Shown: positions 1,242 to 48,661, counted from the first letter of the whole stretch. The stretch: DNA of 63,082 nt, filler included, from 10 parts of 10 records of this genome joined end to end with filler, not necessarily neighbours in it; one strand, 5' to 3'. Translations and numbers: made by a program. Notes: a model not told the origin generated them from the letters alone.

Positions 1242-2794
1242 CTACTCGGCTTCCTTCTTGGTGGCCGCCTTGGCCTTCTTAGCGGGCTTCTTCTTGTCGG
1301 CCTTGGGCTTGGGCTGCTCGGCCGGCTGCGCCGCGGGCGGGCTGGGTGCGGTCACAGTCTCGAGCTGCGGAGCGATATGCTTTTGAGTCTGCACCCTGCG
1401 GACTGTCTGGGCCTTGGTCAGCGTGAACATGAACACAGTCGACGAGCCGAGCCGGGCGATCCGGGAGGACCAGGCCAGGAACACCTCCCACCGGCGGTAG
1501 GAGCGCACACCATACTTGGCCACGATCGAGTCCCGAGCCAAGTGCCATTCCTCAAGCCACTGCGCGAGCGTGCGGCTGTAGTGCGTGCCCAGGTTGTTCA
1601 CGCGCTGGATCTCGAACCCGGCCCGTTCCAGGTGAGTCGACACCCATCCGAGCGGGCACGAGGCGTCTGCGCCAGGGAACACGTGCTCGCCCATGAAGAG
1701 CCCCCAGACCAGGTCCTCCCACGCCCAGTGCCTCCGGAGCCCAGCCACCTGGAAATAGAACACGCCGTCGTCCTTGAGCATGGCGTGCACCTGCCGCCCG
1801 CTCGCCGGCTGGCCGGGCAGGGCCGGTGCCTTGGTGAGGAACTCATTGTACCGGCGGATCCCGACGTGTTCTGCCATCTCGAGCGACGTGATCTTGTCGA
1901 ACTGAGCTGGAAGGTCGGTCCGTTCGTCCATCTTCATCGCGTCCTGCAGCAGCACTTGCCCTTCGTTGTGCTTGTTCAACTCGTCCGCGAACTTCTTCTG
2001 CTCGCTCGACAGAGTGAGCCCCGTCACCTTGGCACCTGCGCACGACTCGGCCGCCGGCCCACACGCTCGATCACCGTACTTATCCGAAAAGTGCTGGACC
2101 AACCGGCCCCAGCCGCACCCGATGTCCAGCACGGTCTCGCCCCGCTTCAGCTCGATGGCGTCGGCCACGTAATCCAGTTTGTACTCTTGCGCCTGGCCCG
2201 CTGTGTGAGCTCACGACGCAGCCTGGGCACGACGGGCCTGCTTGAGGGTCTCATTGCCGGTCTTGTAGATGCCCGAGGTGTACACCATCGGCTCGCCCAG
2301 GGTGGCCCGGAACCAGTCGTTCCCCTTGTTGTACGCCACAGGGATATTCCCGGCGTTGTGCGCATCAAGATGGAGCAGCGTGTGGGTCATCAAGTCCTTC
2401 ATCAGATAGGCCAGCTCGTGCTTGCCGAACGTGGGCGCGTTCTTCTCGCTCTCCAGGATCTGGTTCAGGTCCGAGGAACCGTGCTCGATATAGTCCTCAA
2501 GCGCCTCCCGGAGTGACGGGGTGGCCGGGTCAAACCCTCGCAGCGCGGCGTCCTCGTGCGAGCCGAGGTAAGTGCCGGCGATCATCACCGTCAGCATGCC
2601 CGGCACGAAGAGCGCCACCCACAGCCTGAACCTGCCGCCCGGGGCTGGCACGATGCGGGGGCTGGAGCCGGGTGCCTGGGTTTCACCAGGCAGGCGATTA
2701 CGATGTTGAATGCGACGATCTCGGGGAGCCGCTCGACCAGGAAGAGCACCAGCTCGGTGAAGTCGAACCCGGGGATTGCTGGGAAACCGAACAT
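1242..2794 (-). CDS. Sphingolipid C9-methyltransferase / cyclopropane-fatty-acyl synthase family SAM methyltransferase (5 exons)
   Basis: Motifs YNKGNDWF..LGEPMVYTSG, VLDIGCGWG, ITSLEMAEHVG and AGLRRHWAWEDLVWGLFMGEHVFPGADAS, plus N-terminal hydrophobic helices. Introns 2632-2675 (GC-AG), 2193-2237 (GC-AG), 2036-2074 (GT-AG) and 1791-1829 (GC-AG) give a continuous frame. Confidence 0.85.
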
Positions 2795-2936
2795 CTCGCC
2801 TGCCACCCGCAGTCAGACGCCGCGTCCAAACACATGCGACCGTGTGTCTCGAGCGTGTGAATGAAAAGTTAACGGAAGTGACCTCCCACAGAAGTCGCAG
2901 ACTGCGGGTCCCGTCCGCCGTCAGAGAAGCGGCTGA

Positions 2937-3653
2937 ATGGCGGCGGGCACGCTGATCTCGCACACCTGGATGCGCTCGCCGCTGCTGCCCCGCATCCCGC
3001 TCCGGGCGGCGGTGGGGGCCCAGCGGCTGGCCCTGGGCCGACCCCGGCTGCCGGCGAAGGTGCTCGGCGGATCCACCATGGCCGTGCAGGATGTGGGCGG
3101 GGCCTCGCTCCGGCTGGAGCTGGCCGAGCCGATAGACGACGGGGGGTACCTGCTGCTGCTCTCGTCTGGCCCGCACGGCTGGGTGCCCGCCATCGCTGGG
3201 GTGCCCGGAGCGCGCTATGGCCCGGCGCGGGAGAGGCTGGCCGAGGCGATGGTGCTGGCCCGGCCGCTGGACTGCCCGGCCGGCCAGCCGGCGGAGCTGA
3301 CCTTCCTGCCCGAGCACAACCTGGCCGAGCTGTTCTCGCCAGGCCGGGCGCTCAAGGTGGTGCTAGTGCACCGTTGCACCTCTTTCTTCCTAGGACTCAA
3401 CGCCGGCCGCTGGCTCCAAATCCGAATGAACGAGATCGCCGAGGCCGCCGGCCAGTTTGTGGCCGAGCAGGGCCCGGTCGAGGAGAGCCCTGACGCGCTG
3501 TGGGCCGAGTTTGGGGAGCGGAGCGGGCTTGGGGGCCGGTATGTGGCCGAGGTGGAGCCGCCGCCAGAGGATGCGAGCCATCTGTTTGAGCATTACGGTA
3601 TGAGTAACAACAGCGCGCTGCCCCCCGAGGCGAGGCTGCTGCACAAGCTATGA
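2937..3653 (+). CDS. Hypothetical protein (238 aa)
   Basis: ATG-initiated ORF with G/C-ending codon bias, followed by an AT-rich spacer. No family recognised. Confidence 0.6.
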   Translation: MAAGTLISHTWMRSPLLPRIPLRAAVGAQRLALGRPRLPAKVLGGSTMAVQDVGGASLRLELAEPIDDGGYLLLLSSGPHGWVPAIAGVPGARYGPARERLAEAMVLARPLDCPAGQPAELTFLPEHNLAELFSPGRALKVVLVHRCTSFFLGLNAGRWLQIRMNEIAEAAGQFVAEQGPVEESPDALWAEFGERSGLGGRYVAEVEPPPEDASHLFEHYGMSNNSALPPEARLLHKL

Positions 3654-3759
3654 TCCTTAGTTTGAATATCTTGATCAATGAATGATGTAAATCTGCTCAT
3701 CGTGCTGCCAGCTGGCATTATTTTAACGGTCTGACGCTCGGGTGACCACTCGACTCGTC

Positions 3760-5684
3760 ATGGCACCGGTGAGGATCGGGTGCTACTCGGCGGCCTGGGG
3801 CGACTCGCAGATGAGCACTCCGCAGCTGCTCAAGGGGGGCCGGCTGCACTACCTAGTGGGCGACCTGCTGGCCGAGGTGACCATGGCCATCCTGGCGCGC
3901 AAGAAGGCCCGCGATCCGTCCAAAGGGTACGCTACCGATTTCGTGTTCATGATGAAGCAGAACATGGCCGAGATCAAGCGCCAGAAGATCAAAGTGGTCG
4001 TCAACGCCGGCGGCATCAACCCGCTCGCCTGCCGGGACGCGTTGATGGCCGAGGCGCGGCCGAGGCTCGGGTTGGGATGACCGGGCTGGGCAGGCGGCCA
4101 AGCAAGGCGTGAGCCTCAAGGTGGGCGTGGTGCTCGGGGACGACCTGATGGCCTCCTCCGAGGAGTACCGCACCCAGGGGATCACCGACATGTTCTCGGG
4201 TAACAGCTTCCCGTCCAAGAAGGCGCTGATGAGCTGCAACGCCTACCTCGGCGCGTTCCCGATCGCCGAGGCGCTCCGGCAGGGCTGCGAGGTGGTGATC
4301 ACCGGGCGGGTGGTGGACTCGGCCTGCGTGCTCGGACCGCTGATCTACGAGTTTGGATGGGGCACAGCTGAGTACGACAAGCTGGCCGCGGGCACGCTCG
4401 CAGGCCACCTCGTTGAATGCGGCCCACAGTGCTGCGGCGGGCTGTTCACGGACTACGAGGCGGTGGAGTCGTGGGTCAACATTGGGTACCCGATCGTCGA
4501 GGTCGAGCAGAGCGGAGAGTTCACGGTGCAAAAACCGCCAAAGACAGACGGCCTGATTTCAATCGGCACTGTCTGTGAGCAAATGCTGTACGAGATCGGC
4601 GACCCTGGAGCGTATCACGTGCCGGACGTGGCGTGCGACTTCACGCAGGTCCAATTCGAGCAGGTTGGGCATGACGTGGTCCGCGTGACGCACGTGAGAG
4701 GCAACCCTCCGACTGACACCTACAAGGTGGTTGCGACCCATCGGAACGGGTTCACCGCTCACTTGCCGTTCACGATCGTTGGGCACGACGCCGGGGCCAA
4801 GGCTCGTCGGGTGGCCAGCACCCTGCTCACCCGATGGCGCCGGATGCTCAAAATGGCTGGGCTGCCTGACTTTGCCGAGGTCCGACTCGAGACCACGGGC
4901 GCAGGCCAGTATTTCCGGCAGCAGGCTGGAAGCCGCGAGGTGTGGATGCGACTCGGAGTGCGCCACGCCAGCAAGGCGGCCATCGGGCTGGTATCTCGTG
5001 AATGGGGCTGTGCTGGCACCTCGTTCGCGCAAGGTCTCTGTGGCGGAGGCGGCGTGTTCAGCATGAGCGAAACAGTCTCCGCGTTCCTCTTCCTTGTGCC
5101 CAAACGCGGGATCGGCAACGTGGTGGTAGTGGAGAACACAGAGAGCCAGTTCCCTGTGCCAGTGGATGGCGGATTTGTGCAGAGCGCTTCAGTCACAGTT
5201 CAGCCGACCGCGGCCCAGGCTCCGTCCGGCCTGACCACCCAGGTGTGTGCTCTCGACGGCCGGGTGCTCACGTGCCGTGCAGATCCCGCTGCTCGACCTG
5301 TGCTGGGCCCGGAGTGGCGACAAGGTGCGTGCTCGTGCCGCCAGCAGTGCTGAGATGATGCTGTAGGGGAACTATGCCAACATTGGGCTGATTGCGCGCC
5401 GGCCGGAATATTTGCCAGTGCTGCGGGCCCAGGTGACCGAGCAGCGGGTGGCCGAGTATTTTCGGCACAATCTCAAGGGCAGCTGCACCCGGTTCGACCT
5501 GCCCGGCAGCAACAGCATGAACTTCCTTCTGACTGACACGCTTGGCGGCGGCGGCACTTCGTCGCTGCACAGCGATGGGCTTGCCAAGACGTACGGACAA
5601 GTGCTGCTCGGGATGGAGATCGAAGCGCCGGTTGAGTGGGCCAACAGATCCCGGTTGGCTATCGCGCGACCCTCCAAGCTGTGA
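3760..5684 (+). CDS. Acyclic terpene utilisation AtuA-like protein (DUF1446 plus C-terminal domain), 4 exons
   Basis: RIGCYSAAWGDS, LLAEVTMAILA, NAGGINP, NAYLGAFPIAEAL..G..VVITGRVVDSA, GHLVECG and QMLYEIGDP, with C-terminal ARSGDKGN..NIG and LGGGGTSSL..DGLAK. Introns 4054-4093 (GC-AG), 5243-5282 and 5325-5366. Confidence 0.85.
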
Positions 5685-6009
5685 GCGCGATCCATCTAGT
5701 GGATCCATGTCAACACGATCCACGATGAGAAGTACTTGGATGCTCGTATTGTACGTACGGTAGATGCTACTCGTACGAGTAGTGAGCACTATGCCACTCT
5801 ATACAATATTAGAATCTAAACAATTACTCGAATTCAAATTGTATATGTACAATCTATCAGTTTTAACCAATCCCACGCGTCAATGAAGTATCAATTAAGA
5901 TTGCGAAGTGCACAATGTGTCGTGCAAGTAGGTGATCAATAGTATCAAGACCCTCTTGCTGCGAGCTTGAGTGTGTACACTTAGGCTTGCGACCCACCTG
6001 CTATCATGC

Positions 6010-6660
6010 TTAAGCTTGCGATGCCCCTGGCTGTCCACCTGGAGCCTGCACAGCTGCCTGAGCATGCTGGTTCTCGAGGTTGGCCTGGTTGTCATCCCAA
6101 TCCGAAGGATCGTTGTAGTACTCCTTCATGACCGGGCAGCACCCGAACTTGGGGCAGCACATGAGTCCCAAGTACCCGCAGGTGTACGAGGGGACGGTAT
6201 CCACGCACGGGAACGCGCAGTCTCCAGCGCAGCAGAGACAGTAGGCGAGCTCGGTGGCGCAGCAAGTCCGCGGGCTCAAGCAGTAGTAGCTGTAGCCGCA
6301 GATGCCAGCGCAGCACCCGCAGCACACGAAGTATTCCGCCTTGGGCCCGTAGATGGCGATCTTCTCCGCCGCGGTGTCAGCCTTGCCGTCGCCGTCGCCG
6401 TCAACGTACAGTTCCTTGAGGGTGGTGCAGCAGGCGAACTTGGGGTACAGGAAGCAGCACGGCAAGCAGGAGCAGGTCTTGCCCGGGATCGCGTTAAACC
6501 GGTCGTCGCATGTGATGCAGAACCCGTCATAGCCGCAGCAACAGCACTCCGAGAACTCGTTGGCGCAGCAGGCAAGCGGCTTGGCGCAGTAGTTGTTCTG
6601 GCAGCAGCATCCGGCGCAGATGGCGAGCTCCTTCTTGCTTGATCGAAGCTTGAGAGGCAT
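6010..6660 (-). CDS. Cysteine-rich protein with two internal repeats
   Basis: Intronless ORF from MPLKLR with many CC/CCC clusters in two homologous halves, separated by DGDGDGK. Confidence 0.75.
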   Translation of the reverse strand: MPLKLRSSKKELAICAGCCCQNNYCAKPLACCANEFSECCCCGYDGFCITCDDRFNAIPGKTCSCLPCCFLYPKFACCTTLKELYVDGDGDGKADTAAEKIAIYGPKAEYFVCCGCCAGICGYSYYCLSPRTCCATELAYCLCCAGDCAFPCVDTVPSYTCGYLGLMCCPKFGCCPVMKEYYNDPSDWDDNQANLENQHAQAAVQAPGGQPGASQA

Positions 6661-7109
6661 GGTAGAGATGTGAAACGGCGGACGAGACGAGCGAATTACG
6701 CAAACAGACAACTCAAACAGAATACCGTTGGTTGGATCAACGGCAATGCCAACGGCATGCGATGGGATTCAGGGCATCCCAACCAGAAGACTGGCGCTGC
6801 CCAGAATGTGGAGCCCCCAAGGATGCGTACTACGGGGTGGGAGCCCGGCCCGGCTGCAGAGCGAGGCAGCGACCTTTTTGAGTCCAACAGGTTTACCAGC
6901 TCGACGGGCGAACGCTCCACAGCCGATTGCGGCCCAGCTCCAATCCCACGGCAAGGGCAAGCCACCCAGTAGTGCAGCTCGCCGGCAGGACCCTTGCCGG
7001 TTGCCGCGGGCTGTGCAAAGCACGGTGAGGGTGCTGCGTCTGCTCGGGCCATCCTGCCGGGCCGGCCGGGCGGCTGTGCCCGAGGTCGAGGCGGCGCTAC
7101 CTTCGATCG

Positions 7110-7664
7110 ATGCAGCGCGACGTCGACGATTCGGGCCCGATGTTAGGACTCTCGAGCTCGGGAATGCTGGGAGAGCTCCGGAGGGGGCGCGTGCGGGTGC
7201 CGGCGAGTCTACTCGGATGCCGGGGCAACGGAGCAACAGACCAGGACGATGATGTTCTCAACCGGTCGCCAAGGTCCTCGACAAGACGACGGCGAAGCCG
7301 GAGCCATTTGCCACCACATGAGTGCTATTGCGGGGGTATTTGTGAGCAGTGCAACGGCGCCACAGAGGTCGAGTACTTGGATGTTTGGGTCACTCGACCA
7401 GTGCTTGACAAACACCAAGCTAAGGAATGGACAATCCGCGGCAAGCAGCCCAACAACAGGCTCGAGCGATTGATCGGGATCAGATGTGGCTACCTGATTA
7501 TCAACGTCAGTGTCCCAGCCGGCCAGTTGGGTACCAAGGGGTGCCTCTGCACTGGTTTGAATGAACGTTCTGCAATCTGCATCAATATGTCAAACTCGTG
7601 TATGCTTCAACGTGCTTCAGTCTTGCTCCGTACGCTGTACATGGCCAGCTACTGGCGACCCTGA
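7110..7664 (+). other. Possible hypothetical or degenerate CDS
   Basis: 184-aa ORF with a Cys/His cluster (HECYCGGICEQC) and weak codon bias. Gene structure is unresolved across 6760-7664. Confidence 0.25.
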
Positions 7665-7952
7665 GATTTACCTGAGATTGATTAATTGTACGTTCGAGAA
7701 CTCATACGTACTTACATAAATTTAATGTTCAGAGGGCTCGATCGCGCTCCAATGATGCACGGGTTCGCTTCGTTTGCGTTCAGTAAGAATACCACCGATT
7801 TATTAGTGTACATGTGATTCATCAGTCATCGTTCAAGAATGATTTATTACTCATGCGCTCAAATCATGTACAATTAGGATCAATAACGACTCGTCATGAC
7901 GTACATGTCTTGAATCCATCTTGAATCGATGATTAATTAATGATCAAATTTC

Positions 7953-8029
7953 TCAAGTAACCAGACCGTCAACCCCTGTTGCGCCCTTGTCGGACTCCGC
8001 GGCCTTCTTCTTCTTCTTCTTCTTCTTCT
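7953..8029 (-). CDS. C-terminal fragment of a gene truncated by the contig end (poly-Lys tail)
   Basis: The (CTT)n run reads KKKKKKK-AAESDKGATGVDGLVT-stop on the minus strand. Confidence 0.45.
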
Positions 8030-8129
8030 NNNNNNNNNNNNNNNNNNNNNNNNNNNNNNNNNNNNNNNNNNNNTTAATTAATTAANNNNNNNNNNNNNNN
8101 NNNNNNNNNNNNNNNNNNNNNNNNNNNNN
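8030..8129. other. Artificial contig linker
   Basis: N-run + TTAATTAATTAA (stops in all six frames) + N-run, 100 bp. Confidence 0.98.
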
Positions 8130-8387: not shown

Positions 8388-10157
8388 TCATCGCGAGGCG
8401 GCCACCCACGGGTATTGCTCCTGGTGCGCGTAAGCCACCTCGGGGCCTTTGGGGTCGGAATCGTAGCACGCGCCGCCCGGGATGTTGCACGGGGCCATGT
8501 AGTCGCCGCCCTTGACGATGGCGTCCACCTTGGCTTGTATCGTGGCCACCATTCCGCTGTAGCTCCCGAGCGAGCTCAGGATCAAGTTGTGCTGCTCGTA
8601 CGGGTCGGCGCTGATGTTGAACAGGGCCAGCCCGCTGGTCGAGCTGGTGCACGAGACCGCCGCCACTCGCGCTTCGGGGGCCACAGTGCAGCTCTTTGAG
8701 ATCGTGCCCCAGTGGTCCGACACGCACGTCGCGCAGTCTGCGGCCGAGCCGCACGCCTTCTTGACCGCGGCCGTGCACGCCGGCGCGAGCCCTGCCGAGC
8801 TGTTTGCGGCGTAGTGCTGCTCGGGCCACCAGACGGCCCCGTGCAAGTCAGTCTGGGCAGTCGAGCGCTCGAGCTGCTCTGAGCTCGGGACCGGATACCA
8901 GGTGTCCGCAGCCACCCCGGAGGTCAGCTTCATGTCGCCCATCCGGTATGCCCACTCCTGGCCGGCGCAGGCCCCGTGTCCGGAGCAGGGATCATAGTTG
9001 TGAAGCAGCTCTGTCCGGGGCGAGACGCCATTCGAGGTGATGGCGGGCCACATGTCCAGACCATCCAGCGGCCCCTTCCCGGGCAGCGAGGCCCCGCCCA
9101 GGCTGGCGAACGTGGCGTGCCAGTCGGTCACGTGCATCATGCCGCTGTAGCTCTGGCCGCGCAGCTTGGCCGGGAGCAGGCTGCCAAACACGAGCGCGTT
9201 GTTCCTGACCCCGCCTTCCCACAGCTCGGCTTTGTGCCCCCGGAGTGGCCAGTTGTTCCCGGCCGAGTTGGGCATCCCGCCGTTGTCCCCGGAGATCACC
9301 ACCAGGTAATCGTCTCCTTCGAATTGTTGCTTGATCAGCCTCGTCAGGTTTCCAATCGCCTCGTCCGCAATCGCAGCCATCGCGCAGAACGTCTTCCGGT
9401 CGGCGTTGGGCACCTTGCTGCACGCCTGCTCGTACTTGCCGCCGGGCGATTCGAGCGGGGCGTGCACGTTCTGGAGCGGCAGGTAGAAGAAGCCTGGAGT
9501 GCCGGCTGGGTGGGTCCGCTTGTGGTTCAGGATGGCCTGGCTCATCTCTTGCCCAAACAAATCGGTCGAGTAGACCCCGCTCTCGTTCCGGACCGCCATG
9601 TACGTGCCGTTGTTGAGCAGCCCGGCCGGGTTGGTCTGGTTCCACTGGCGATGCAGGTCGAGGTACCCGCCCAGCTCGTGTGTCAGGTAGTCGCTCGCCC
9701 CGTTGTAGTACCCGAGGTAACTGTCAAAACCGCGGAAGGTGGGCGTGCTCGCCATGTTGTAGCTGCCCAGGTGCCACTTGCCCACCGCGTGCGTGGCGTA
9801 CCCGGCCGCCTTGAGCTTGTCGGCCAGTGTGGTCTCGTCCAGCGGGAGCCCGTAGTCCTGGAAGCCGCCGATCACACCGTGCTGCAGCCCGAGCCGCGCG
9901 GGGTAGCGGCCGGTCATGAAGGCCCCCCGGGTGGGCGAGCACAGCTGCTGGGTGTAGTAGTGCTCCAGCTTGAGGCCCTCGGGCACCAGCTTGTTGACGT
10001 TGGGCCAGGCGATCTGGCCGAGGTCGCTCGAAGAATGAAAGTCGTTGAACCCCATGTCATCCACCAGAATGAAGATCAGATGCGGCTTGGCGCTGGTCGT
10101 CGGCAGACCCGAGCAGCTCGCAGCAAGCCCAGCCGCCAGCAGGAAGAGCTTCAGCAT
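8388..10157 (-). CDS. Secreted arylsulfatase B-like sulfatase (formylglycine-dependent, S1)
   Basis: Signal peptide; PHLIFILVDDMG, LCSPTRGAFMTGRYP (CxPxR), VGKWHLG, ISGDNGG, NWPLRGHK..LWEGGVR, HVTDW and LFNISADPYEQHNL. Intronless. Confidence 0.93.
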   Translation of the reverse strand: MLKLFLLAAGLAASCSGLPTTSAKPHLIFILVDDMGFNDFHSSSDLGQIAWPNVNKLVPEGLKLEHYYTQQLCSPTRGAFMTGRYPARLGLQHGVIGGFQDYGLPLDETTLADKLKAAGYATHAVGKWHLGSYNMASTPTFRGFDSYLGYYNGASDYLTHELGGYLDLHRQWNQTNPAGLLNNGTYMAVRNESGVYSTDLFGQEMSQAILNHKRTHPAGTPGFFYLPLQNVHAPLESPGGKYEQACSKVPNADRKTFCAMAAIADEAIGNLTRLIKQQFEGDDYLVVISGDNGGMPNSAGNNWPLRGHKAELWEGGVRNNALVFGSLLPAKLRGQSYSGMMHVTDWHATFASLGGASLPGKGPLDGLDMWPAITSNGVSPRTELLHNYDPCSGHGACAGQEWAYRMGDMKLTSGVAADTWYPVPSSEQLERSTAQTDLHGAVWWPEQHYAANSSAGLAPACTAAVKKACGSAADCATCVSDHWGTISKSCTVAPEARVAAVSCTSSTSGLALFNISADPYEQHNLILSSLGSYSGMVATIQAKVDAIVKGGDYMAPCNIPGGACYDSDPKGPEVAYAHQEQYPWVAASR

Positions 10158-11793: not shown

Positions 11794-11893
11794 NNNNNNN
11801 NNNNNNNNNNNNNNNNNNNNNNNNNNNNNNNNNNNNNTTAATTAATTAANNNNNNNNNNNNNNNNNNNNNNNNNNNNNNNNNNNNNNNNNNNN
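11794..11893. other. Artificial contig linker
   Basis: N-run + TTAATTAATTAA + N-run. Confidence 0.98.
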
Positions 11894-14538: not shown

Positions 14539-17500
14539 CTAAAACTCGAGCTCTTTGTCCTCCATTGGCTGACTCGTGTCCTTTTCTCCGTGCTCTTCTC
14601 TATGCGCTTCCGGTTCACCCCCACTGTCGATCGGCTGCTCGAGCTCTTGCTCCTCTGCGACAAGTTGTGCGACCTCAGCTTGCAGCTTCGCCATCTGTGA
14701 GCGCTTCCCGCCCACCCCCTTTGCCGACTTGGCGTTTTTGTGCTTTTGCCGCCATGGTGGCAACCCTGGCAAACACGAGTTTGGTTAGTCTCCGCGCAGG
14801 TGCCATTGCATCAGGAATACCTTTTTTCCTATAGATGGCAGCAATGTCGATCGTTGAAGCGGAGTCTAGAGCTCGGACACCAGGATGCAGATAGGATGGA
14901 GCAGATGCTGCCAGCTTGGCTTTGGCTGCCTTCTCGGAGAACTCATGAGGCTCAGCAGATCCAACGTTGAAGCTCCCAAGCTGCGCTGTAGTACCCAACG
15001 CCCTCTGTATAATCTCCCTCCCTTCGGATCGCTCCATGAGGCTGAACATCATTGCGAGCTTGCCGGCCGCTTGGCTCGGGGTAGTGGCTTCTTCCACCCC
15101 CTCGACTTCCCAGTCGATTGCGCACCGCACCAGCACATCCACAAACTCTTCAAAGCTGAGATGATGCAAGTTATCATCCGCCGACACGCCCACTGTATTA
15201 GCTGCCCTGAACAGTCTCGCCAGCCGTTGCCTGGCACCCAGTCAGCCACGCCCACATGATGGAACTGCTCACCGTGACACAACTTCGTCTTTGAGATCGA
15301 ACTCGCAGGCACACTTCCACATCTCTTGAAAGTTGATCATGTTCAACTCATCCACCATTTCCTTATGACTTAGCGGCTTGTGCCCATCATCCTCCTGAGC
15401 CTGCACTCACACTCAACACAAGTACCACTGTGGCAGGGTGCTCACCCTGTTGTAATGGTTGAAAAGAGTCCGCAGTAGGGCTAGCCCGCGCTCAACGACA
15501 TCTTGCACTTCAGTGGAGTCAATCAGCTCCACATGTGATGGCAGTGGGGCCAGCCGTTGGGCATAGGGTAATATCCAGTCCTGCAGCAAGCTTTGGATCG
15601 CAACGGATGGGTCTTCTGCGTCCTGGAATTTGATCGCACCCACCATCCGGACTGCCTCAAATAGCTGGGAGAGTGTCATCCGCGCCTTGCGCTTTGCAAA
15701 GGTGGCTTGCTGGAAGATGAGGTCGATCCGCGCATGGTTGAGCCTGTTCTCGTCCACTAGATAGCAGTCACGCATCAACTTGAAGAACTGACTGTTGTTC
15801 ATCGTCTCCTGCAGATCCTGCTCGGCATAGTTACAGTAGAATTCGAATATCTCGGCCATGGCCTCGTGATTCTCAGACATTTCAAGCGCCTCCATGAAAG
15901 TCATGGATCGCTCCACCAGGCTTTGCTCCTCTCGCACGATCTCCTTGATCACCTCCGCCGCTTGAACCTCGGTGAACTGCTTTGCAAACGTCTCGGCTGC
16001 AAGCACCGCACCACACACTCCAGTGTCCATTTGAATGCTCATCAGAACTTTGTTCCGGCTCAATTTGAGCAGCAAGTATTCAATTTTCAGGAAAGCAGTC
16101 GGAAATTGGTCAGCAAATGGAGCGCTATTCATTCCAAACAGAGCGGCCAGCCCGAGCCACTGCACGAACCCATCATAGGTGAGCGATTCGACATGCTGGT
16201 GCTTATTCTCGCCGCTCCCCATCCGCTGCACCGCGTATGCTAGCTGCGACACCTGGAACTTGGATAGCAAGTCAGGCACCAGGTCGAAATCGTCACACAG
16301 CCGGTTCAGCTCGACGACAGATAGCTTCTTGTGCTCTAATGCAATCTCTGGCCACTCTAAGTTGGGCTGATCTAAGTAGCCCACACCAAGCTTGCTATAG
16401 TAATCAAAAATAAACTGCACAAGGACACTCTATCAGTCGGCTAGCGTGGGGTACGGATCACCACAAGGAATTCGCTGCAACGCTCAAATAGCCCCGCGAT
16501 CTCCATGTCGCCATTCAGCAGCTTAACAAACAAGTCCGACTGCTTCATGTGCTCGGGGTGCTCTTGCACCAAGCTCATGATATTGCGCTCGATTATGAGA
16601 TCCAGAGCCTGGTAAGCATCCATCTCAGGCTCCTTCTTGGAGACCACCATGCATAGCGCCAGCAGAAAGTGCTGGAAACTCAGCTTGGACTGACTGTTGG
16701 CCAGTCTCCCAGCAGCTTGTACGAACACCACGTCTATGATCGCCTTGCTCAGCGGCGGGTTGCTCAGCCCGGCATCACGCATGCACTGCTGGAAACGCAC
16801 CCTGGCCATTGCTGCGCCTACCCGCATGTCTCCGCAGTGCCAGTGCATGCAGTAGCGCTTGAATACCGCCTCCAGGTCATCCAGCCTAGGATGAGCAAGC
16901 AAATGAGCCACTAGTGGGTCAGCCTGCTCTGGGCTTGGCGCTGCAACCGGCAACGATCTCGTTGGATTGAAGCCAGGGTTGGAGATCGATCGCCGGCGCC
17001 ACGGGGGTGAGCCAGACCGCGGGACCAGGCTGGATTGTGAGAGCTGCCGTGATTGCTGTACAGAGAGGCAGCGGGCGCCTGGAGACAGCTCAGCACACAG
17101 CAGCCCAGCTGGCGCACCTGCGGAGGCATACCGGCGCGTGGTGACTGGCTGATGCAGCACAATCTCACGCTGGGGCTCAGGAACCTTGAAGGACATGTAC
17201 CTGTTGGCAGCTCAGACCTGCCAGGGCGCAGGCACACCTCCAGAGGCAAGACTGGCAGCGCACATGGTCGGCGCCTTCGGAGCCCTCTATCACCTCCAGC
17301 ATCTTGGTTAGCTCATGTGCGGCCGCCTCGGGAGTCAGCTCGCGCTCTGGGCCTCTGATTGCACTCGCGATGCCGCTTGTTTCAAGAACCAGCCCGAGTT
17401 CCCGCCGAGTGCCCTCGCCTGTATTATGCGAGTTGATTGCCAAGTGCACCAGCACATCCTTGAACTCGGCAAAGCACATCAGATGGGCGTTCCCGTCGCC

Positions 17501-19580: not shown

Positions 19581-19719
19581 CCTCGCGTGGACTCGGTGTG
19601 CCGGTGCTGCGGTCTCACATCCGTCAGGCCGCGCTGCTGTGCGCCCGGTCGCCGGTCTGGCCGCTGCTCAAATCAGAATTTCCACAACGGCATCGCCCCG
19701 GCAGTGCGAGTCTGCGCGC

Positions 19720-29041: not shown

Positions 29042-29141
29042 NNNNNNNNNNNNNNNNNNNNNNNNNNNNNNNNNNNNNNNNNNNNTTAATTAATTAANNN
29101 NNNNNNNNNNNNNNNNNNNNNNNNNNNNNNNNNNNNNNNNN
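29042..29141. other. Artificial contig linker
   Basis: N-run + TTAATTAATTAA + N-run. Confidence 0.98.
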
Positions 29142-29239: not shown

Positions 29240-30117
29240 ATGGTGCCTTTCAAAGCGCTTGCATTGCCACTCCCCGTCGCGAGCCTTGCCGGGCGGGGAC
29301 TTGCTCCTAGCCCTGAGCTGGCCAAGCTGACCGGGTTTGTGGCCCCAGGTAGCAGACGCCGCAGCCCCCGCGACCCCATCGCCGAGCAGCTTTGACTTCA
29401 ACGCGTCGCATTTGGAGAACGTGTTCATCGGGATCTCCGGGCTGATCGGCGCAGGCAAAACCACCCTGGCCGAGGCGCTGGCGGCCAAGCTGGGGCTGCC
29501 GATGCACTACGAGCCGGTGATTGACAACGTGTACCTGGAGGACTTCTACAAGGACATGTCCAAATACGCGTTCCCGCTACAGATCTTCCTGCTGAACAAG
29601 CGGTTCAAGCAGCAGCAGCAGATCGTGTGGGAGGGCCGGGGCGGGGTACAGGACCGCACTATATACGAGGACTCGGTCTTCGCCCGCATGTTGAGGGACT
29701 CGGGCGCGATGGACGCGAGGGATTACAACACGTACTGCGAGCTTTTCCAGAACATGAGCAACTTCATGAAGAAGCCCAACATCATCGTGCACCTGGACGT
29801 CTCCCCGGAGGAGGCTATGGACCGGATCAAGACGCGGGCCCGGTCCCGGCCAGCGTCGGGTGGGGCTGAGCGGGCGGGCAGTGGGTGCGAGGTGGGGATC
29901 ACTCTCAAGTACCTGCAGGACCTGCACAAGGCGTACGAGCTGTTCATCGAGGAGATCGCGGTGGGCCATGAGCGCCACCCGGCTGACTGGCGGGCAGCGG
30001 GTGATCCCGGTGATCAAGATAGACTATTCTGAGTTCAGGAGCTCCGAGCAGATGGCGGAGAAGATCGCGGCCGAGTATAGCAGAATCGCCAACATCAAGA
30101 ACGTCACCTGGGAATAA
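29240..30117 (+). CDS. Deoxynucleoside kinase (dNK family)
   Basis: P-loop ISGLIGAGKTT, YEPV, QDRTIYEDSVFARML, RIKTRARGCE and YLQDLHKAYE. Introns at about 29843-29881 and 29961-29997. The 5' exon structure is uncertain. Confidence 0.88.
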
Positions 30118-34200: not shown

Positions 34201-34346
34201 ACCTGTTCGTGCAGATGGTGTGCAGCGAGAGCCACGACCTCAGGCAGCCGCACCTGTGCCTGTTCGCGAGCGCCAGGATCCCACAATTCACAGAGCTCTG
34301 CTACGACTACGGCGAAGAGTACGAGTCGGCCTGGCTGAAAAACTAG
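31223..34346 (+). CDS. PWWP + SRA/YDG + SET domain SUVH-like histone H3K9 methyltransferase (4 exons)
   Basis: PWWP GDLVWARMSGCGWWPARI; SRA VGALPGVQVG..IGVH..MAG..SGGYLDDID..YTG..VPVRVIR..YTYDGLY; SET LEVFMTEDKGWGVRC..GEFVCEFTG..GNVARFINHS..PNL..ELCYDYG. Introns 31361-31400, about 31542-31584 and about 33202-33242. Confidence 0.85.
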
Positions 34347-35822: not shown

Positions 35823-35845
35823 CACACAGTGTCACTCGGCGAAAC

Positions 35846-38173
35846 ATGGCTATCCGATTGCTGAAGGGACTCCTGCTGCTCCTGGCCCCGCTGTCCGAGG
35901 CGGCCCAGCCGAGCACCAACGGGAGCGCGGTGGCCGGGGCGTCCTCGGTCAGTTGGTCCGACCCGGACTGGGCCTCGGACGGGACTGGCGCGATGCCGCT
36001 TGGGAACGGCGATCTGGCGGCCTCGGTCTGGGTGGACAAGCTCTCGGGCGACCTGCGGCTGCTGCTCAGCAAGTCGGACGTGTTCGACGAGAACAGCCAG
36101 CCGGTCAAGACTGGCGCACTCCGACTCTCGTTCGACCCGCCGCTCTGGCAGCCCGGCCAGAAGGACTGGGCCATGAGGCTGGATCTGGCGGCCGGCCAAG
36201 TCATCGTCAGCACCCCGCAGATTCAGGTGCGCGTGTTCGCCGAGCTCGTGGCCAAGCAGCAGCCAATCGGCGTGCTCCATGTGACGGCCAGCGGGCGCAA
36301 CTTCTCGCTGACGGCCGCGGTGGAGCCGTACCGGCGGGCTGGGGTGCCCACCTCGCTAGGGCGGGGGTTCTGCTTCCCTCGGTGGGAGCAGGCCGACACG
36401 CTGGTGCCGGACGATCAGAGCGTGATCTGGTACCACTGGAACCACTTGAACACGACATACTTCAACGACACGATGCGCGGGCAGGGGATCGAGCACCCAG
36501 CTGAGCTCGGCCTGACCGACATGTTCACCGGCCGGGCATGGGGCGGCAGCCTGGTCGCCGACGGGATGCACCCAACCAGCTCGCACACCGCGCTGGAAGG
36601 GCACGGGCTAGACTCCATCGACCTGCGGGTCACGCTGCTCACGCTGGCCAGTGTGAATGATCCGGCCGAGTGGCTCGCCGCCATCCGGCGCCCGGCCAGC
36701 CCCGGGCCGGGCCCGTCCTGGGAGCGAATCCTGGACCGATCGTACGTCGAGCTGAGCGGCGCCAGCCCGGAGCACCAGGCGAGCGCCAAGCAGATTACAG
36801 ACCACGTCAACTGGGACCGATACCTCAGCCTGATCCAGGGCCGCGCCGGGTTTGCGCCGATCAAGTTCAACGGGCAAGCTTTCAACTGCAACGACACCGG
36901 CAAGGGCTGGGACACCCGCGGCTGGGGCGCCGACTACTGGTGGCAGAACGAGCGCCAGCCATACTACAACGCGATCGCCCAGGGCGACTTGGACACGATG
37001 CGGAGCTTTCTGGAGTTCTATCTGAGGATGCTCCCGTACGTGCAGGCCAGGACCGCGGCGCAGTTCGCCAGCTCGCCCACCCCGATCAGCGCGGGGGCGC
37101 TCTACCCCGAGACTAGCACCCAGTTTGGGCTGTACAATGAAGGCGACTGGGGCTGCACCAACAAGCCACCCAACCAGGACGGGGCCTCAAGCAACACGTT
37201 CATCCGGTTCCACTGGACTGGCAGCCTGGAGCTAGCCCTGATGATCCTTGACTACTGGGACGCCACCGCCGACCTAAACCAGCTCGGCAGGTACCTGCCT
37301 ATCGCCACCAACGTGGTCGAGGCTTACAGGCAGCGATTCCCAAACAGGGACGCTCAGGGCAAGATCGACATGTTTCCAGCCCAGGCGCTCGAGACGTACC
37401 AGTGCCCGGGCCCGCGCTCGCGAGACAGCTGCAACACCAACCCGTCCACAGATATCGCCGGGCTGACTGCTGTGCTCAGCAGGCTGATCTCGCTGCCCAA
37501 CAGCACCGGGGTGACCAGCAGCCAGCGAGCTAGCTGGCAGGCGCACCTGGCCGCTCTCCCGCCGCTCCCTACCGACCCAGCCAAGCCGGGCGGGGTGTCG
37601 GCCAGCAAGATCGCGCCAGTCGGCTCCGGGCCGTGGAAGCGGCAGGGGCGGCACAACTCGGAGAACACCGAGCTGTATGTGGCGCACCCGTTCAGGCTGT
37701 TCGGTGTGGGCAAGAGCGATCCGACAGCGCTGGCTCTGGCCCAGCAGACCTACGCTGAGCGGATGTCGCCGTGCAACAACGGCTGGTGCCAGGACATCAT
37801 CCAAGCCGCAATGCTCAACCTGACCGACCAGGCTGCCGACCAGCTGGCACAGCGGGCCGCGGCCTCGGACCACGGCGGGTTCCGGTTCGAAGGGTTCGCC
37901 GGGCATTACCAGGACTACGAGCCTTCGCTCGACCACTACGGGTTCATGCGGACCGGACTGAACTACATGCTGATGGCCCCGGTGGATGACCCGGCCCGCT
38001 CGATGGTGCTCTTCCCGAGCTGGCCGGTCGACCGGTGGAATGTGAGATTCAAGCTACATGCGCCCCTGAACACCACCATCGAGGCCTCGTGCCAAGCGGG
38101 CAAGCTCGAATACCTGATCGTCACTCCGGAGCAGCGGCGCGCTGACATCAAAGTGCTCAACTGCCGGACGTGA
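35846..38173 (+). CDS. Secreted DUF5703 / GH95-like (alpha/alpha)6 glycoside hydrolase
   Basis: Signal peptide; MPLGNGD.AASVW, PIKFNG, R.WG.DYWWQNER.PY, PAQALET, N.EN.ELY..HPFRL and W.V.FKLHAP..T.IE. Intronless, 775 aa. Confidence 0.8.
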   Translation: MAIRLLKGLLLLLAPLSEAAQPSTNGSAVAGASSVSWSDPDWASDGTGAMPLGNGDLAASVWVDKLSGDLRLLLSKSDVFDENSQPVKTGALRLSFDPPLWQPGQKDWAMRLDLAAGQVIVSTPQIQVRVFAELVAKQQPIGVLHVTASGRNFSLTAAVEPYRRAGVPTSLGRGFCFPRWEQADTLVPDDQSVIWYHWNHLNTTYFNDTMRGQGIEHPAELGLTDMFTGRAWGGSLVADGMHPTSSHTALEGHGLDSIDLRVTLLTLASVNDPAEWLAAIRRPASPGPGPSWERILDRSYVELSGASPEHQASAKQITDHVNWDRYLSLIQGRAGFAPIKFNGQAFNCNDTGKGWDTRGWGADYWWQNERQPYYNAIAQGDLDTMRSFLEFYLRMLPYVQARTAAQFASSPTPISAGALYPETSTQFGLYNEGDWGCTNKPPNQDGASSNTFIRFHWTGSLELALMILDYWDATADLNQLGRYLPIATNVVEAYRQRFPNRDAQGKIDMFPAQALETYQCPGPRSRDSCNTNPSTDIAGLTAVLSRLISLPNSTGVTSSQRASWQAHLAALPPLPTDPAKPGGVSASKIAPVGSGPWKRQGRHNSENTELYVAHPFRLFGVGKSDPTALALAQQTYAERMSPCNNGWCQDIIQAAMLNLTDQAADQLAQRAAASDHGGFRFEGFAGHYQDYEPSLDHYGFMRTGLNYMLMAPVDDPARSMVLFPSWPVDRWNVRFKLHAPLNTTIEASCQAGKLEYLIVTPEQRRADIKVLNCRT

Positions 38174-38371: not shown

Positions 38372-38471
38372 NNNNNNNNNNNNNNNNNNNNNNNNNNNNN
38401 NNNNNNNNNNNNNNNTTAATTAATTAANNNNNNNNNNNNNNNNNNNNNNNNNNNNNNNNNNNNNNNNNNNN
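38372..38471. other. Artificial contig linker
   Basis: N-run + TTAATTAATTAA + N-run. Confidence 0.98.
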
Positions 38472-42316: not shown

Positions 42317-42416
42317 NNNNNNNNNNNNNNNNNNNNNNNNNNNNNNNNNNNNNNNNNNNNTTAATTAATTAANNNNNNNNNNNNNNNNNNNNNNNNNNNN
42401 NNNNNNNNNNNNNNNN
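42317..42416. other. Artificial contig linker
   Basis: N-run + TTAATTAATTAA + N-run. Confidence 0.98.
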
Positions 42417-42489: not shown

Positions 42490-43797
42490 ATGACGCGCGT
42501 CACGGTGGTGATGCCGGTGCACAACGGCGGGCGGTTCCTGGCGGAGGCGGTGGCGTCGGTCCAGGCCCAGAGTTTCAGCCGCTGGCACCTGCTGGTCCCC
42601 CTCCCTCCACCCGCGGCCAGCCCGGCCAGATCGTGGAGGACGGCTCGACCGACGACTCGCTCGAAATCGCCCGGGCGCTCGCGGCCGAGGATCCGCGGCT
42701 GAGCGTCTACGCCTGCCCGGTCAACCGACGCTGGGCCTCCCTCAATGAAGCGCTGGCCGCCACGCCGCTCGGTGCGCCGGGGAACGGCAGTGGGCCAGCC
42801 GGGGGGCAGCCGAGTTCGTGGCCCGGCTCGACTGCGACGACCTGTGCGCCCCGGACCGGCTGGCGCTGCAGGTGGCGGCGCTGGACGGCCGGCCGGAGCT
42901 CGAGGCGGTGGGCGGGTCGGTGGAGCTATTCGGCGCGGCTGGGCCTGGCCGAGTTGTCCGACACCCGAGCCGGCCGGCCGAGCTGCTGTGGGCCATGCTG
43001 TTCGGGTGCGCGATCGCCCACTCCAGCTCGATGGTGCCTGCCCGGCCGGTCACACGGAGGAGCCCCGGCAGATGCGCCGCAGCCTCGTCGAGCGGCTCAC
43101 GCGGGACGGCGAGCTGTACAGGTGCGAACAGCGGGGGGGGTCTGACACCGAGGCAGCGTACGGCACCTTGTAGCCGAGGACTACGATCTTTGGCTGCGGG
43201 CGCTCCCGGAGGCCAGGCTGGCCAATCTAGACGAGGCCGCCTTTGGCTGCCTACCAGCGAGCCCAGCTGCAGGTACTAGTCCGATACAGACGGCACGCAG
43301 ACAACATCTCAACACAGCCAGGCGCGAGCGAGCTCGCCGGGCAGCTCGCCAGCCAGAGCGTGCACCAGACCGTCGAGCGGCTCCTCTCACGGCGGGGCCC
43401 AGCCGGAGCCCGCTGAGCCGTGCCCAGGGGAGTCCCTGTCGACGATTTGCGTGCAGTTCGCGACCCTGCGGGGGTGCAGGCCGTGGGCGAGGCGGAGGCC
43501 GGCTCTCGGCTGCTGCTGGAGCTGGCGTGTAGGGCTGGTGGGCTGGGGGTGACGGCAGGAGGGCAGGAGAAAGCGGTGGTTGGGCTGGAGTGGGTGGGCG
43601 AGGAGGAGCGGGTTGCGATTCGGAAGGATGCGACCGCACGGCTGGGTGCGGCCGGCTGGAGATCTGGGCGAGCTAGGGTAGGCGAGCTCGCTGCCCGGGC
43701 GTCGGCGATCGATTCCGGGGCGGCGCAAGGGCTGATGGTGGGCTGGATGCAGCGCGGGCAAGGTGAGGGCGGTAGGGGCGGTCTGAGCGGTGGGTAG
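42490..43797 (+). CDS. Glycosyltransferase family 2 (7 exons)
   Basis: VTVVMPVHNGGRFL.EAV.SV..Q, IVEDGSTD, ARLDCDD...PDRL, AEDYDLWLR and NLDEVLVRYRRH. Six introns of 35-38 nt, including GC-AG 43236-43272 and 43392-43427. Confidence 0.85.
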
Positions 43798-46090: not shown

Positions 46091-46190
46091 NNNNNNNNNN
46101 NNNNNNNNNNNNNNNNNNNNNNNNNNNNNNNNNNTTAATTAATTAANNNNNNNNNNNNNNNNNNNNNNNNNNNNNNNNNNNNNNNNNNNN
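46091..46190. other. Artificial contig linker
   Basis: N-run + TTAATTAATTAA + N-run. Confidence 0.98.
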
Positions 46191-46569: not shown

Positions 46570-46728
46570 ATGAGAAAGCTAGAATTCAAATGAAGAGATC
46601 TGTACTCGTACGACGTGTGCGCTTTTCAACTGAATACACACTAGTAACATCGTAACACACTAGTCTAACACTAGTCGACTAGTCGTCGCTTAATTAGTGT
46701 AGGTACCGGTAGACAGGCCTGCAGCTGG

Positions 46729-47640
46729 CTACGCAACTTTTGTTTCCAATCTCATCTCATGGGGCCCCGGCGGAGCCTGGAGCTTCACTTTGGGCTGGCG
46801 CGGACGGCGTTTAGCACCCGGGTTGACCCAGACCGGCCGGACCAGCTGACCGAGCTGCTCCACCAGCTGCTGGCCGAACAGAGCTGGGGGCACGTCGAGC
46901 CCTCCGGCCAGTGGCGCTGGAATGGCGAGCCGCCCTCCCGCAGCACCATGGATGACGAAGCGCTCTCCTACATCGAGGCACCGGCCCGGCCGCCGGCCCA
47001 GCCCAGCGGCTGTTGGGCAGTGGGCCTCGGAGCGGTACGCTGGGCGCGAGCTCCGGCGGCGGCCTATTCGATATCGTGATGGCTCTCCAAGAGGCGACGG
47101 AGCCAGCTCTTTTTGGACCGCCGCCAGTGCCTGCTCTCGGGTCGGGTGGGTGTCCGTTGCAGCGGGCTGTCCGGGCGGGCCCAGAGTGTACTCGGTCTCG
47201 CACACGGGGAAGCGGAGCACCGCGCAAACCCCGGTGAATTGGCTCAGGCGGCCAGATTCGACCGAACCAGCCGCGAAGCAGTCGACCCGCCCGCCCGCTC
47301 TAGTCACCGCACCAGCCAACGACGGCTCCGCCGGCCCGGCCACCAGCAACCGAGCCACCGCCCCGTACTCGGCGGCCCGGCGCACGTGCTCCGGCCCGTA
47401 GGTGACCGTCTCCGGGGCCGTGGCCAGCCGCTTAATAAAATCGTCGCACAGGTGTGCCGAGCTGTCAGGAAGGCCACGCGTGGGGCTTACTCGCGAGGTT
47501 GATGGGGACCGGTCCCAAGGCCGGTCGATGGGTGGGTTCGCTCCGCGCTTTGCGCTGCGCTTTCTTCGCTCCTCTCGGCATGCTGCCTCTGCTCTTCTTG
47601 GGTCGGGTTCACACAGCGAACCGCGCTCTTCAACTGAATC
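46729..47640 (-). CDS. Stand-alone pelota/eRF1 domain 3-containing protein (start and C-terminus uncertain)
   Basis: DDFIKRL...PETVTYGPEHVRRAAEYGAV.RLLV...GGRV..F......G.LSQFTGVCAVLRFP matches the pelota C-terminal domain. Domains 1-2 are absent. Confidence 0.65.
   Translation of the reverse strand, partial: DSVEERGSLCEPDPRRAEAACREERRKRSAKRGANPPIDRPWDRSPSTSRVSPTRGLPDSSAHLCDDFIKRLATAPETVTYGPEHVRRAAEYGAVARLLVAGPAEPSLAGAVTRAGGRVDCFAAGSVESGRLSQFTGVCAVLRFPVCETEYTLGPPGQPAATDTHPTREQALAAVQKELAPSPLGEPSRYRIGRRRSSRPAYRSEAHCPTAAGLGRRPGRCLDVGERFVIHGAAGGRLAIPAPLAGGLDVPPALFGQQLVEQLGQLVRPVWVNPGAKRRPRQPKVKLQAPPGPHEMRLETKVA
46759..47401 (+). CDS. Hypothetical gene, 3' part doubtful (overlaps the antisense gene)
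   Basis: ATG ORF with typical codon bias, followed by a typical GC-AG intron at 46978-47020. Coding signal is lost after about 47070. Confidence 0.4.
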
Positions 47641-47704
47641 CTGAAGTTACCCTATTCGACGGTCCGACGGTCCATAGATCGGTGCTCAAGATATTTTTCC
47701 AGCC

Positions 47705-48661
47705 ATGCCGCGACCGGGCCTGATGCTTGCGCTGGCTCTCGGGCTGGCCAAAGCAGCAGTGCCCGAGGACATTCTGGTGCCGGAGAGCGCCCCGGTCTAC
47801 CCGGCAACGGTCCAGCAAGAGCTTCCCCTCGGACAGGACTGGCTCGAGGGCCTCTCGTTCGTGCAGTCCGACCTGCTCCTGGACAGCACCGGCCCTCCCG
47901 AGGGCTCGGGCAATTACGGCCAGGCCCGATTGCGCCGATTCCCGTCGGGCGATGTAGTTTCAGCCGTTACCGTCCCGGGTGCCTACGGCGAGGGCTCGGT
48001 ATTGCTCGGAGACAAGGCAAACGGCCGGGGTGGGGTGCTCTAAGCGGGGGGCAGGTCTACATGCTATCGTATAAAGAGAAACAGGTTCACGTCCTGCCGT
48101 ACGCGAAAGAAGAAGGCAAGCTCTCCGAGCCGGTGGCCGTGCTGGCACTGCCGGACCGGCCGTGGTGCGGGCGTCCTGGCCAAAGCGGGTGTGAGGGATG
48201 GGGGCTGACCACCGACGGCAGCCGGCTGCTCATGTCGGACGGGAGCTCCTACCTGAGCTGGCTCGAGCCGACCGCGGACGGGCTCAAGCTTGCGGACAGC
48301 TTTCAGGTAGCCGACGCTGGTCAGCCGGTGAGTTTGCTCAATGAGCTTGAATGGGTGGATGGCAAGATCTTGGCAAACCGATGGATTAACTCAGACAAGG
48401 ATGACCAACGGATGGTGGTGATTCAGCCGGGGCAAGGCAGCGTGCTTGGGTGGGTGGATCTGGGGCCGCTCGCACTCAAGAACACGCATTACAACTACGG
48501 GCAAGCTGCGTTCTTCACAAACGGGTTGGCATTGCAGCCACGACAAGACAGCTGCTCTGGGGGGGGGGATCTGCTGCAGTGAGCCGGCCGGCTGCCTTTG
48601 GGTGACGGGGAAGGACTGGAAGAATATGTATCAGATCGCGATGCCGCCCGAGCTCAGTTGA
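47705..48661 (+). CDS. Glutaminyl-peptide cyclotransferase (plant/bacterial beta-propeller type)
   Basis: Signal peptide; EGL, STG..YGQ, YGEG, EGWGLTTDGSRLLMSDGSS, LNELEWVDGKILAN, NGLA and LWVTGK.W. GC-AG intron 48017-48054, with a frame change near 48534-48579. Confidence 0.85.

Follow-up and report, generated by a model that had tools for sequence, protein, structure and literature searches.

The stretch of DNA analyzed here (the window, 63082 bases drawn from ten contigs) raises the question of how its genes are spliced. A preliminary description made from the sequence alone had parsed about 50 tiny introns in it, had given a GC instead of a GT donor to about one fifth of them, and had proposed that such introns may be defined by their length with a relaxed U1/U2AF requirement. 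Are these GC..AG segments genuine introns and, if so, which signals would define them? Our analysis confirmed the observation of tiny introns with many GC donors and partly supported the interpretation: they are very probably ordinary U2-type spliceosomal introns, of minimal length and with GC donors tolerated, in the compact GC-rich genome of an uncultured marine protist. All 11 segments originally listed (1791-1829, 2193-2237, 2632-2675, 4054-4093, 22610-22650, 24338-24379, 25423-25472, 43236-43272, 43392-43427, 46978-47020 and 48017-48054) have GC as their first and CAG as their last bases when read in one orientation, and 10 of them are preceded by an exonic AG, as had been noted for most. 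As introns they fared unequally: six were verified, two by RNA and four more by protein-family profiles, four others are plausible and that at 46978-47020 is doubtful.

Direct evidence of splicing came from Logan contigs of four RNA runs, belonging to four studies, that were placed on positions 1-8029 of the window. A sphingolipid C9-methyltransferase-like gene on the minus strand carries a GC-AG intron at 1791-1829, of 39 nucleotides (nt), in-frame and stop-free, which was skipped in runs X1, X2 and X4 from three studies (joint 1789>1829). A second GC-AG intron of this gene at 2193-2237 (45 nt, with an in-frame stop inside) was skipped in runs X1, X2 and X5, again from three studies (joint 2190>2236). 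Within the positional ambiguity of these two minus-strand joints, GC-AG is the sole AG-ending reading and there is no GT-AG option. For two further joints the sole AG-ending reading is GT-AG: 2032>2072 (39 nt, run X2) corresponds to the intron at 2036-2074 of the methyltransferase gene, and 5993>6035 (41 nt, runs X4 and X5) to that at 5998-6038 of an orphan gene, both on the minus strand. Two GC-AG and two GT-AG introns were, in sum, demonstrably excised from RNA. Three of the four joints are held by one 884-nt contig with only 8 differences in total, which therefore stems from the source population itself or one very close to it. Over positions 1265-6132 the window and the RNA contigs differ at 26 single bases, some of which (1509, 1899) recur in three or four runs, and this suggests population variants of one organism across samples.

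Two longer skips, 1715>1839 (123 nt) and 1952>2249 (296 nt), were each found in one divergent contig with 4-5 differences per about 50 bases; they probably represent relatives or chimeric contigs and not splicing of the methyltransferase gene. The RNA cover is missing at 2681-3752, 4289-4556, 6701-8029 and other parts, which are therefore uninformative, and no listed RNA joint or piece from the four runs spanned the segments 2632-2675 and 4054-4093. One contig piece of run X1 terminates at 5242, just before a GT-AG intron at 5243-5282. What these contigs report is the existence of joints; they reveal neither retention levels nor rare isoforms. The orphan gene (5844-6660, minus strand) has no Pfam match and shows by far the deepest RNA contig cover in the first contig, with a word depth of 17.6-38 in three of the four runs; a run of T forms a loose end at 5844 and points to a poly(A) site there.

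A second line of evidence was obtained by scoring excisions against protein families. For each of four genes a family hidden Markov model was used to score every stop-free excision of 20-130 nt, whatever its end dinucleotides. Thirteen junctions were scanned, of which six were resolved as GC-AG and five as GT-AG, two being ambiguous; this 6:5 proportion is not a rate because the genes were picked for holding GC candidates. In several scans, displacing an excision by a few bases at constant length left the score equal or raised it by up to 0.8 bits, with an identical or nearly identical product. In the methyltransferase gene, 1791-1829 was the top G[TC]-AG solution among 2354 excisions, its retention costs 18 bits, and it matches an exact 13-amino acid gap relative to five homologs. 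The excision of 2036-2074 was the top of 2282. For 2193-2237, the top G[TC]-AG solution of 1798, the advantage over a GT option was just 2.7 bits, and the RNA joint excludes that option. The third GC-AG intron of the gene, at 2632-2675 (44 nt, minus strand), is frame-shifting, a change visible in tblastn, and was the top G[TC]-AG excision of 2372 with 753.9 bits, the runner-up being a 20-nt GT segment with 747.9.

On the plus strand, the AtuA-family gene contains a GC-AG intron at 4054-4093 (40 nt) that ranked first among G[TC]-AG solutions of 2228 excisions; its 987.5 bits are 0.3 under the overall top, and the best GT solution reached 974.7 (12.8 lower). Here the match to positions 1-94 of the Pfam AtuA profile ends at nt 4050 and resumes at position 96 at nt 4094. 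The same gene has GT-AG introns at 5243-5282 (40 nt, top G[TC]-AG of 1204) and 5325-5366 (42 nt, top of 1512), and the AtuA_ferredoxin profile begins, at its position 15, at nt 5367, right after the latter. In the GT2 glycosyltransferase gene (plus strand), GT-AG introns were resolved at 42595-42629 (35 nt, top of 3301) and 43034-43071 (38 nt, top of 1761), and a GC-AG intron at 43236-43272 (37 nt) was the top of 3649; it scored 283.2 bits against 276.4 for the second-ranked G[TC]-AG solution, and the six best G[TC]-AG solutions listed include no GT alternative. Two more introns of this gene are probably GT-AG with ambiguous boundaries: that at 42772-42809 (38 nt, plus strand) shows the GTGCGC..GGGCAG motif and lies within 3.2 bits of GC alternatives, and that at 43122-43156 (35 nt, plus strand) was the top G[TC]-AG of 1971 by 0.7 bits over a GC alternative. 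Finally, the GC-AG intron at 48017-48054 (38 nt, plus strand) of the glutaminyl cyclase gene was the top of 5147 with 141.5 bits, and the GT runners-up scored 130.0 and 128.9 (11.5-12.6 lower). Exact excision is implied by this protein-family fit for four more GC-AG and four more GT-AG introns beyond those seen in RNA. Pfam profile coordinates likewise imply exact excision of a GT-AG intron at 33202-33242 (41 nt, plus strand) in an SRA-SET gene, where positions 2-108 of the SAD_SRA profile precede the segment and positions 113-148 follow from nt 33243.

Such evidence is needed because the bare GC..AG pattern is not above chance. Among segments of 35-55 nt the window holds 20213 GC..AG against 8630 GT..AG pairs, a 2.3-fold excess of GC, and each junction admits 21-334 alternative solutions by frame logic, which alone overcalls GC introns since GC..AG segments are so common by chance. 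Gene models in which GT and GC donors had equal cost were noisy and overcalled GC, with miscalls at 42764-42798, 42527-42564 and 42585-42620, and false GC calls persisted after a trained intron model was added. Given the common pattern, the many frame solutions and these miscalls, each call requires independent evidence. An attempt to compare high-scoring segments by donor dinucleotide with the reversed sequence was uninformative, its outcome being dominated by overlap with the training set and by true introns counted again in shifted form. These same facts are what would favor the view that the GC donors are artefacts of hand parsing, the real events using nearby GT donors or the segments being coding, and the segment 46978-47020 does resemble a miscall of this sort. 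Yet for two GC-AG introns, each with RNA contigs from three runs and three studies, excision is seen and a GT reading is impossible; four more are the best G[TC]-AG solutions among 2228-5147 excisions compared with family profiles; and the RNA joint of 45 nt rules out a 33-nt GT-AG alternative at 2201-2233, which the first gene models had chosen. The artefact explanation is already refuted for six introns, and we regard it as highly improbable overall.

A related proposal is that the assembly consensus carries C at the second intron position and that the spliced alleles carry T, the donors being truly GT. The window does come from an environmental assembly, the RNA contigs show the single-base differences described above, and spliced RNA is silent on the bases of the intron itself. 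This explanation nevertheless needs the same T-to-C error or minor allele to recur at exactly position +2 no fewer than six times, in separate introns spread over four contigs, and very little probability can be given to it.

The properties of the introns were examined in a curated set of 47 from the whole window, 13 with independent evidence and 34 placed on frames, motifs and the intron model. Their lengths range from 35 to 50 nt, with a mean of 40.0 and a standard deviation of 2.8 in the 26 introns used for training, and there are at most six in one gene. GC donors occur in 11 of the 47 (23%, binomial range roughly 12-38%), with a floor of 13% if the six verified GC introns alone are counted. 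The introns are 74% G+C and 41% G. The consensus of the GT donors is G|GTGCGY, that of the GC donors hardly extends past AG|GC, and the acceptors read (G/T)GCAG|G with a G-rich 3' end. At positions -12 to -3 the composition is 46% G, 33% C, 14% T and 7% A, and no polypyrimidine or T tract was found before the 3' splice site, the longest T run being two or less in 45 of the 47. Some other short-intron lineages also lack a polypyrimidine tract. The branch-like motif TGA[CGT] was present in 24 of the 47 introns compared with 7.1 expected from shuffles, its A lying mostly 11-14 nt from the 3' end, and CTRAY in 11 compared with 1.7 expected. The tiny size, the share of GC donors, the lack of a polypyrimidine tract, the G-rich 3' ends and the degenerate branch-like motif near them all agree with the preliminary description.

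The flanks of the two donor classes tend to differ. An exonic AG precedes the donor in nine of 11 GC introns versus 17 of 36 GT introns (p = 0.08), and a G follows the 3' AG in 10 of 11 versus 18 of 36 (p = 0.03, uncorrected), 28 of 47 in total. Relative to the segments available, GT is favored about 7.7-fold over GC (36/8630 vs 11/20213). A fully relaxed donor is disfavored, as the GT consensus is kept, GT donors outnumber GC donors by 36 to 11 and the GC introns tend to have stricter flanks. The end dinucleotides are uniform; the four RNA joints and 11 of the 13 junctions scanned with profiles are all readable as G[TC]-AG. U12-type introns have a conserved 5' [AG]TATCCTT and a TCCTTRAY branch site; none of the 47 donors starts with [AG]TATCC. 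A GA donor was required at none of the 13 scanned junctions.

This uniformity bears on the idea of non-spliceosomal or structure-defined excision. In Amoebophrya strains more than 60% of the introns are non-canonical, with hairpins (PMC7789003), and dinoflagellates are the only named members of the clade in which the AtuA protein of the window falls; both points would favor excision in the manner of Amoebophrya or of euglenids. Against it stand the 11 profile-resolved junctions and the four clean RNA joints, all readable as G[TC]-AG, the enrichment of the branch-like motif at a fixed distance, and the folding of the 13 best-supported introns, which is no better than that of shuffles (z from -1.19 to +0.94). 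We consider structure-defined excision extremely improbable. Mobile introns of the introner type would be another source of GC donors: in Micromonas pusilla 79% of them reside in D-IE1 introners (PMC4815162), and the RNA joints here leave 3-7 bases that fit on either side, so that the two ends of an intron share a direct repeat. Such repeats are already expected from the AG|G..AG|G consensus flanks, and the 8-, 9-, 10- and 11-mers shared among the 47 introns (1081 pairs) are close to the numbers in shuffles, with observed/expected values of 80/64.7, 24/20.1, 9/6.4 and 3/2.0 in what is a small sample from one window. Introners are very unlikely to explain the GC donors. With both k-mers and folding at the level of shuffles, the introns appear neither as introner copies nor as structure-defined elements.

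As U2-type introns with tolerated GC donors, the introns of the window may be explained as follows. Reduction of intron length would have reached a narrow minimum of about 40 nt. The donor is G|GTGCGY, with AG|GC taking its place in about one intron in four, and the acceptor is (G/T)GCAG|G. The 3' site would probably be the first AG past the branch, aided by the GCAG|G context; binding of U2AF65 to a tract is unlikely because the gap between branch and acceptor is only about 10 nt and holds no tract sequence. The whole intron would probably be recognized as a single unit, by intron definition. The GC donors could be tolerated variants of GT donors, which probably arose by T-to-C changes at position +2 under strong GC pressure, and the weaker donor might be partly offset by stricter flanks, with AG at the end of the preceding exon and G at the start of the next. 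A more radical possibility is a stripped-down code in which a molecular ruler measuring some 40 nt acts together with a branch at -11 to -14 and a GCAG|G acceptor, position +2 being only weakly read and the tract binding of U2AF65 lost or repurposed. We hold this to be rather unlikely; if true, the full genome would be expected to encode a U1 with a changed 5' end and to have lost U2AF65 or carry a divergent one, and introns with GC and GT donors should be spliced equally well.

Several points weigh against the reading of these segments as GC-tolerant U2-type introns. The RNA proof covers two GC-AG introns and comes from assembled contigs, and independent support covers six of the 11 segments originally listed, one of the other five being doubtful. 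Support for the 34 introns placed on frames, motifs and model is partly circular because the intron model was trained on 26 members of the set. Gene models, both untrained and trained, set false GC introns in conserved coding sequence, as at 42527-42564. The compensation by flanks is statistically weak at p = 0.08 and 0.03, uncorrected. In addition, the +2 base is taken from the assembly consensus and the contigs possibly derive from more than one organism, and the donor share refers to one window of ten contigs and not to a genome.

The remaining GC candidates are more tentative. The candidate intron at 22610-22650 (41 nt, plus strand), in an F-box/SPRY gene, is placed by frame and motif; it has CTGAC close to its 3' end, competes with 55 alternative G[TC]-AG frame solutions, and its intron-model score of -1.9 places it among the best 8% of all GC..AG segments. 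The segment 24338-24379 (42 nt, in-frame, minus strand) is a probable GC-AG intron in a LAMTOR5-like gene, in which a LAMTOR5 match stops at its donor; at 20 bits, this match falls short of the 27 that Pfam sets as cut-off. The last exon of this gene, with 21 amino acids too short to score, gave no Pfam match, and a phmmer search of PDB with the protein returned no LAMTOR5. Two GT-AG introns of the same gene are placed at 24495-24535 (41 nt, minus strand), by a frame change and a GTGCGC donor, the LAMTOR5 match starting at the next exon, and at 24604-24646 (43 nt, minus strand), by a frame change. The candidate at 25423-25472 (50 nt, plus strand), in a coiled-coil gene, lies where the upstream frame meets a stop; it is one of 34 G[TC]-AG solutions, the lone GT among the 12 listed being 98 nt long, and has a poor intron-model score (-9.8). 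The candidate at 43392-43427 (36 nt, plus strand) skips an in-frame TGA, has 21 G[TC]-AG solutions (the 12 listed all GC) and scores 3.6, in the top 1.3%. An additional candidate GC-AG intron, outside the range of the preliminary description, was located at 60620-60656 (37 nt, plus strand) in a GH28-like gene; its score of 8.3 falls in the top 0.16% of GC..AG segments, the GH28 match being too divergent for a homology test.

The doubtful call at 46978-47020 (plus strand) was not picked by the gene models. Splicing it would lead to a plus frame running antisense through an open reading frame (ORF) with an eRF1_3 domain (nt 47203-47454); left unspliced, the frame meets a stop at 47079. That ORF (47104-47466, minus strand) matches eRF1 domain 3 with an E value of 1.5e-11. 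It apparently has no upstream room for the first two Pelota/eRF1 domains, with the glutaminyl cyclase gene starting on the plus strand at 47705, and at its 3' end it runs into an ORF of the plus strand, at 46759-47079.

Further GT-AG introns of the set were placed mainly by gene models, frame changes and motifs. A deoxynucleoside kinase gene contains one at 29961-29997 (37 nt, plus strand; frame change, motif and gene model), and its downstream exon alone gave no Pfam match. The SRA-SET gene has predicted introns at 31361-31400 and 31542-31584 (plus strand; gene-model scores 10.9 and 13.4). On the minus strand, four are predicted by frame changes and motifs at 52097-52134, 51879-51918, 51736-51772 and 51660-51698, and four by gene model in a p25-alpha gene at 18509-18547, 18355-18398, 18279-18322 and 18179-18215. 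The GH28-like gene has two more from the gene model, at 61034-61079 and 61487-61529 (plus strand), and the Pfam GH28 match (profile 81-209, approximately nt 61075-61482) falls near the exon 61080-61486 between them.

Concerning the source, the ten contigs measure 3-10 kb each and are strung together by artificial spacers made of 44 N, TTAATTAATTAA and 44 N. Nine identical copies of the spacer are found at 8030-8129, 11794-11893, 22109-22208, 29042-29141, 38372-38471, 42317-42416, 46091-46190, 52854-52953 and 56085-56184. Contig order, orientation and linkage across them are artificial because the window was joined in this way, and any feature bridging a spacer is not real. The G+C content is 50-68% per 2 kb and about 0.8-0.9 at coding third positions, and the genes are tightly packed with both strands in use. 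An Rfam scan of the 63082 bases gave no match, small nuclear RNAs included, and a scan for transfer RNAs found none. Pieces of the first contig are present in 20 marine or aquatic RNA runs from nine studies, therefore the source is an environmental marine eukaryote.

The best matches of the methyltransferase have 70-72% identity, and the named ones looked up are diatoms and a cercozoan with 60-65%. For AtuA the nearest named matches are dinoflagellates (65-72%) and diplonemids (66-67%), and a quick tree placed it in a clade with dinoflagellates as the only named members (Shimodaira-Hasegawa-like approximate likelihood ratio test, SH-aLRT, 98). A diplonemid host was considered and nothing in its favor was found; GC-AG introns are few in the diplonemid data of PMC10161547. 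The four closest related genomic records (about 2 kb, 68-71% identity) matched without interruption, and none of them is a genomic relative with these introns.

Several genes of the window belong to families better known from bacteria, namely AtuA (3760-5684), a sulfatase (8388-10157), DUF5703 (35846-38173), the type 2 glutaminyl cyclase (47705-48582) and DUF3422 (53239-54723); the named relatives of the cyclase among the matches listed are all bacterial, and the matches listed have 33-54% identity. The SRA-SET gene (31223-34346, plus strand) combines SAD/SRA and SET domains, and its Atlas features are nearest to plant-type SUVH clusters (score 0.94); an Atlas look-up of an orphan protein gave no usable match. 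Four adjacent ORFs at 15269-19667 (minus strand) have weak-to-moderate matches to p25-alpha (TPPP) and look like a tandem paralog array.

These introns matter for the annotation of environmental eukaryotic genomes. Predictors restricted to GT would break about one quarter of the introns here, often in conserved enzymes, and predictors that allow GC without evidence overcall instead; errors of both kinds arose in this analysis. GC donors are found here in regular, non-introner introns of minimal length without a pyrimidine tract, which offers a natural test of the minimal spliceosome signal. A full-text literature search, with most subscription journals and supplements outside it, retrieved no report pairing introns of about 40 nt with about a quarter of GC donors.

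In Micromonas pusilla CCMP1545, 25.6% of the donors are GC, 9.7% in regular introns, the mean intron is 180 nt, and GC donors missed by GT-only predictors were recovered with RNA-seq (PMC4815162). The source of our window resembles it in being marine and in a GC-donor share of about a quarter, and differs in introns of about 40 instead of 180 nt and in the absence of repeat families, the GC donors of M. pusilla being largely borne by introners in the data of that source; no close Micromonas relative was among the top listed matches of two genes. The pelagophytes Aureococcus anophagefferens and Pelagomonas calceolata have 14-17% predicted GC-AG introns, attributed to genomic GC content, with introns that average 103-177 bp and are sparse, 0.19-0.92 per gene (10.1101/2024.10.30.620910). 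They are likewise GC-rich marine protists with many GC-AG introns, whereas the introns described here measure about 40 nt and reach six in one gene. A high GC-donor share is also shared with the GC-rich marine alga Emiliania huxleyi, for which 50% is cited in PMC4815162; haptophytes were not found among the named matches looked up.

The elevation of GC-AG introns in Emiliania and dinoflagellates, stated in the preliminary description, matches published figures (PMC4815162, PMC7789003, PMC11453091). Symbiodiniaceae have 25-74% GC|GA-AG introns and dinoflagellate introns have medians of 208-501 bp (table of PMC7789003, PMC11453091). Frequent GC donors and the grouping of the AtuA protein with dinoflagellate sequences are points of likeness; in contrast, the resolved junctions here need no GA donor, the introns are far shorter and the genes are tightly packed on both strands. 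A G after the 3' AG, present in 28 of the 47 introns, is also a dinoflagellate intron feature. Perkinsus marinus, too, has very short introns: by our own assignment of the columns in PMC7789003 their median is 49 bp, and 99.3% of them are GT-AG and 0.7% GC|GA-AG, against about 23% GC-AG here.

Ostreococcus has an atypical GTGCGTG donor, an ACTGAC branch and a CGCAG preference at the 3' end, with about 20-35 bp from branch to AG (PMC2483917). The GTGCG donors and CTGAC motifs of the window resemble this donor and branch consensus, but the distance from branch to AG is here 11-14 nt, and the intron description in PMC2483917 reports no excess of GC donors; no close Ostreococcus proteins were among the matches. 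The window adds a further case, from an apparently uncultured lineage, in which strong GC pressure is found alongside many GC donors. Each of its features has a precedent, and the splicing peculiarity it shows is of a known kind, found here in a new lineage.

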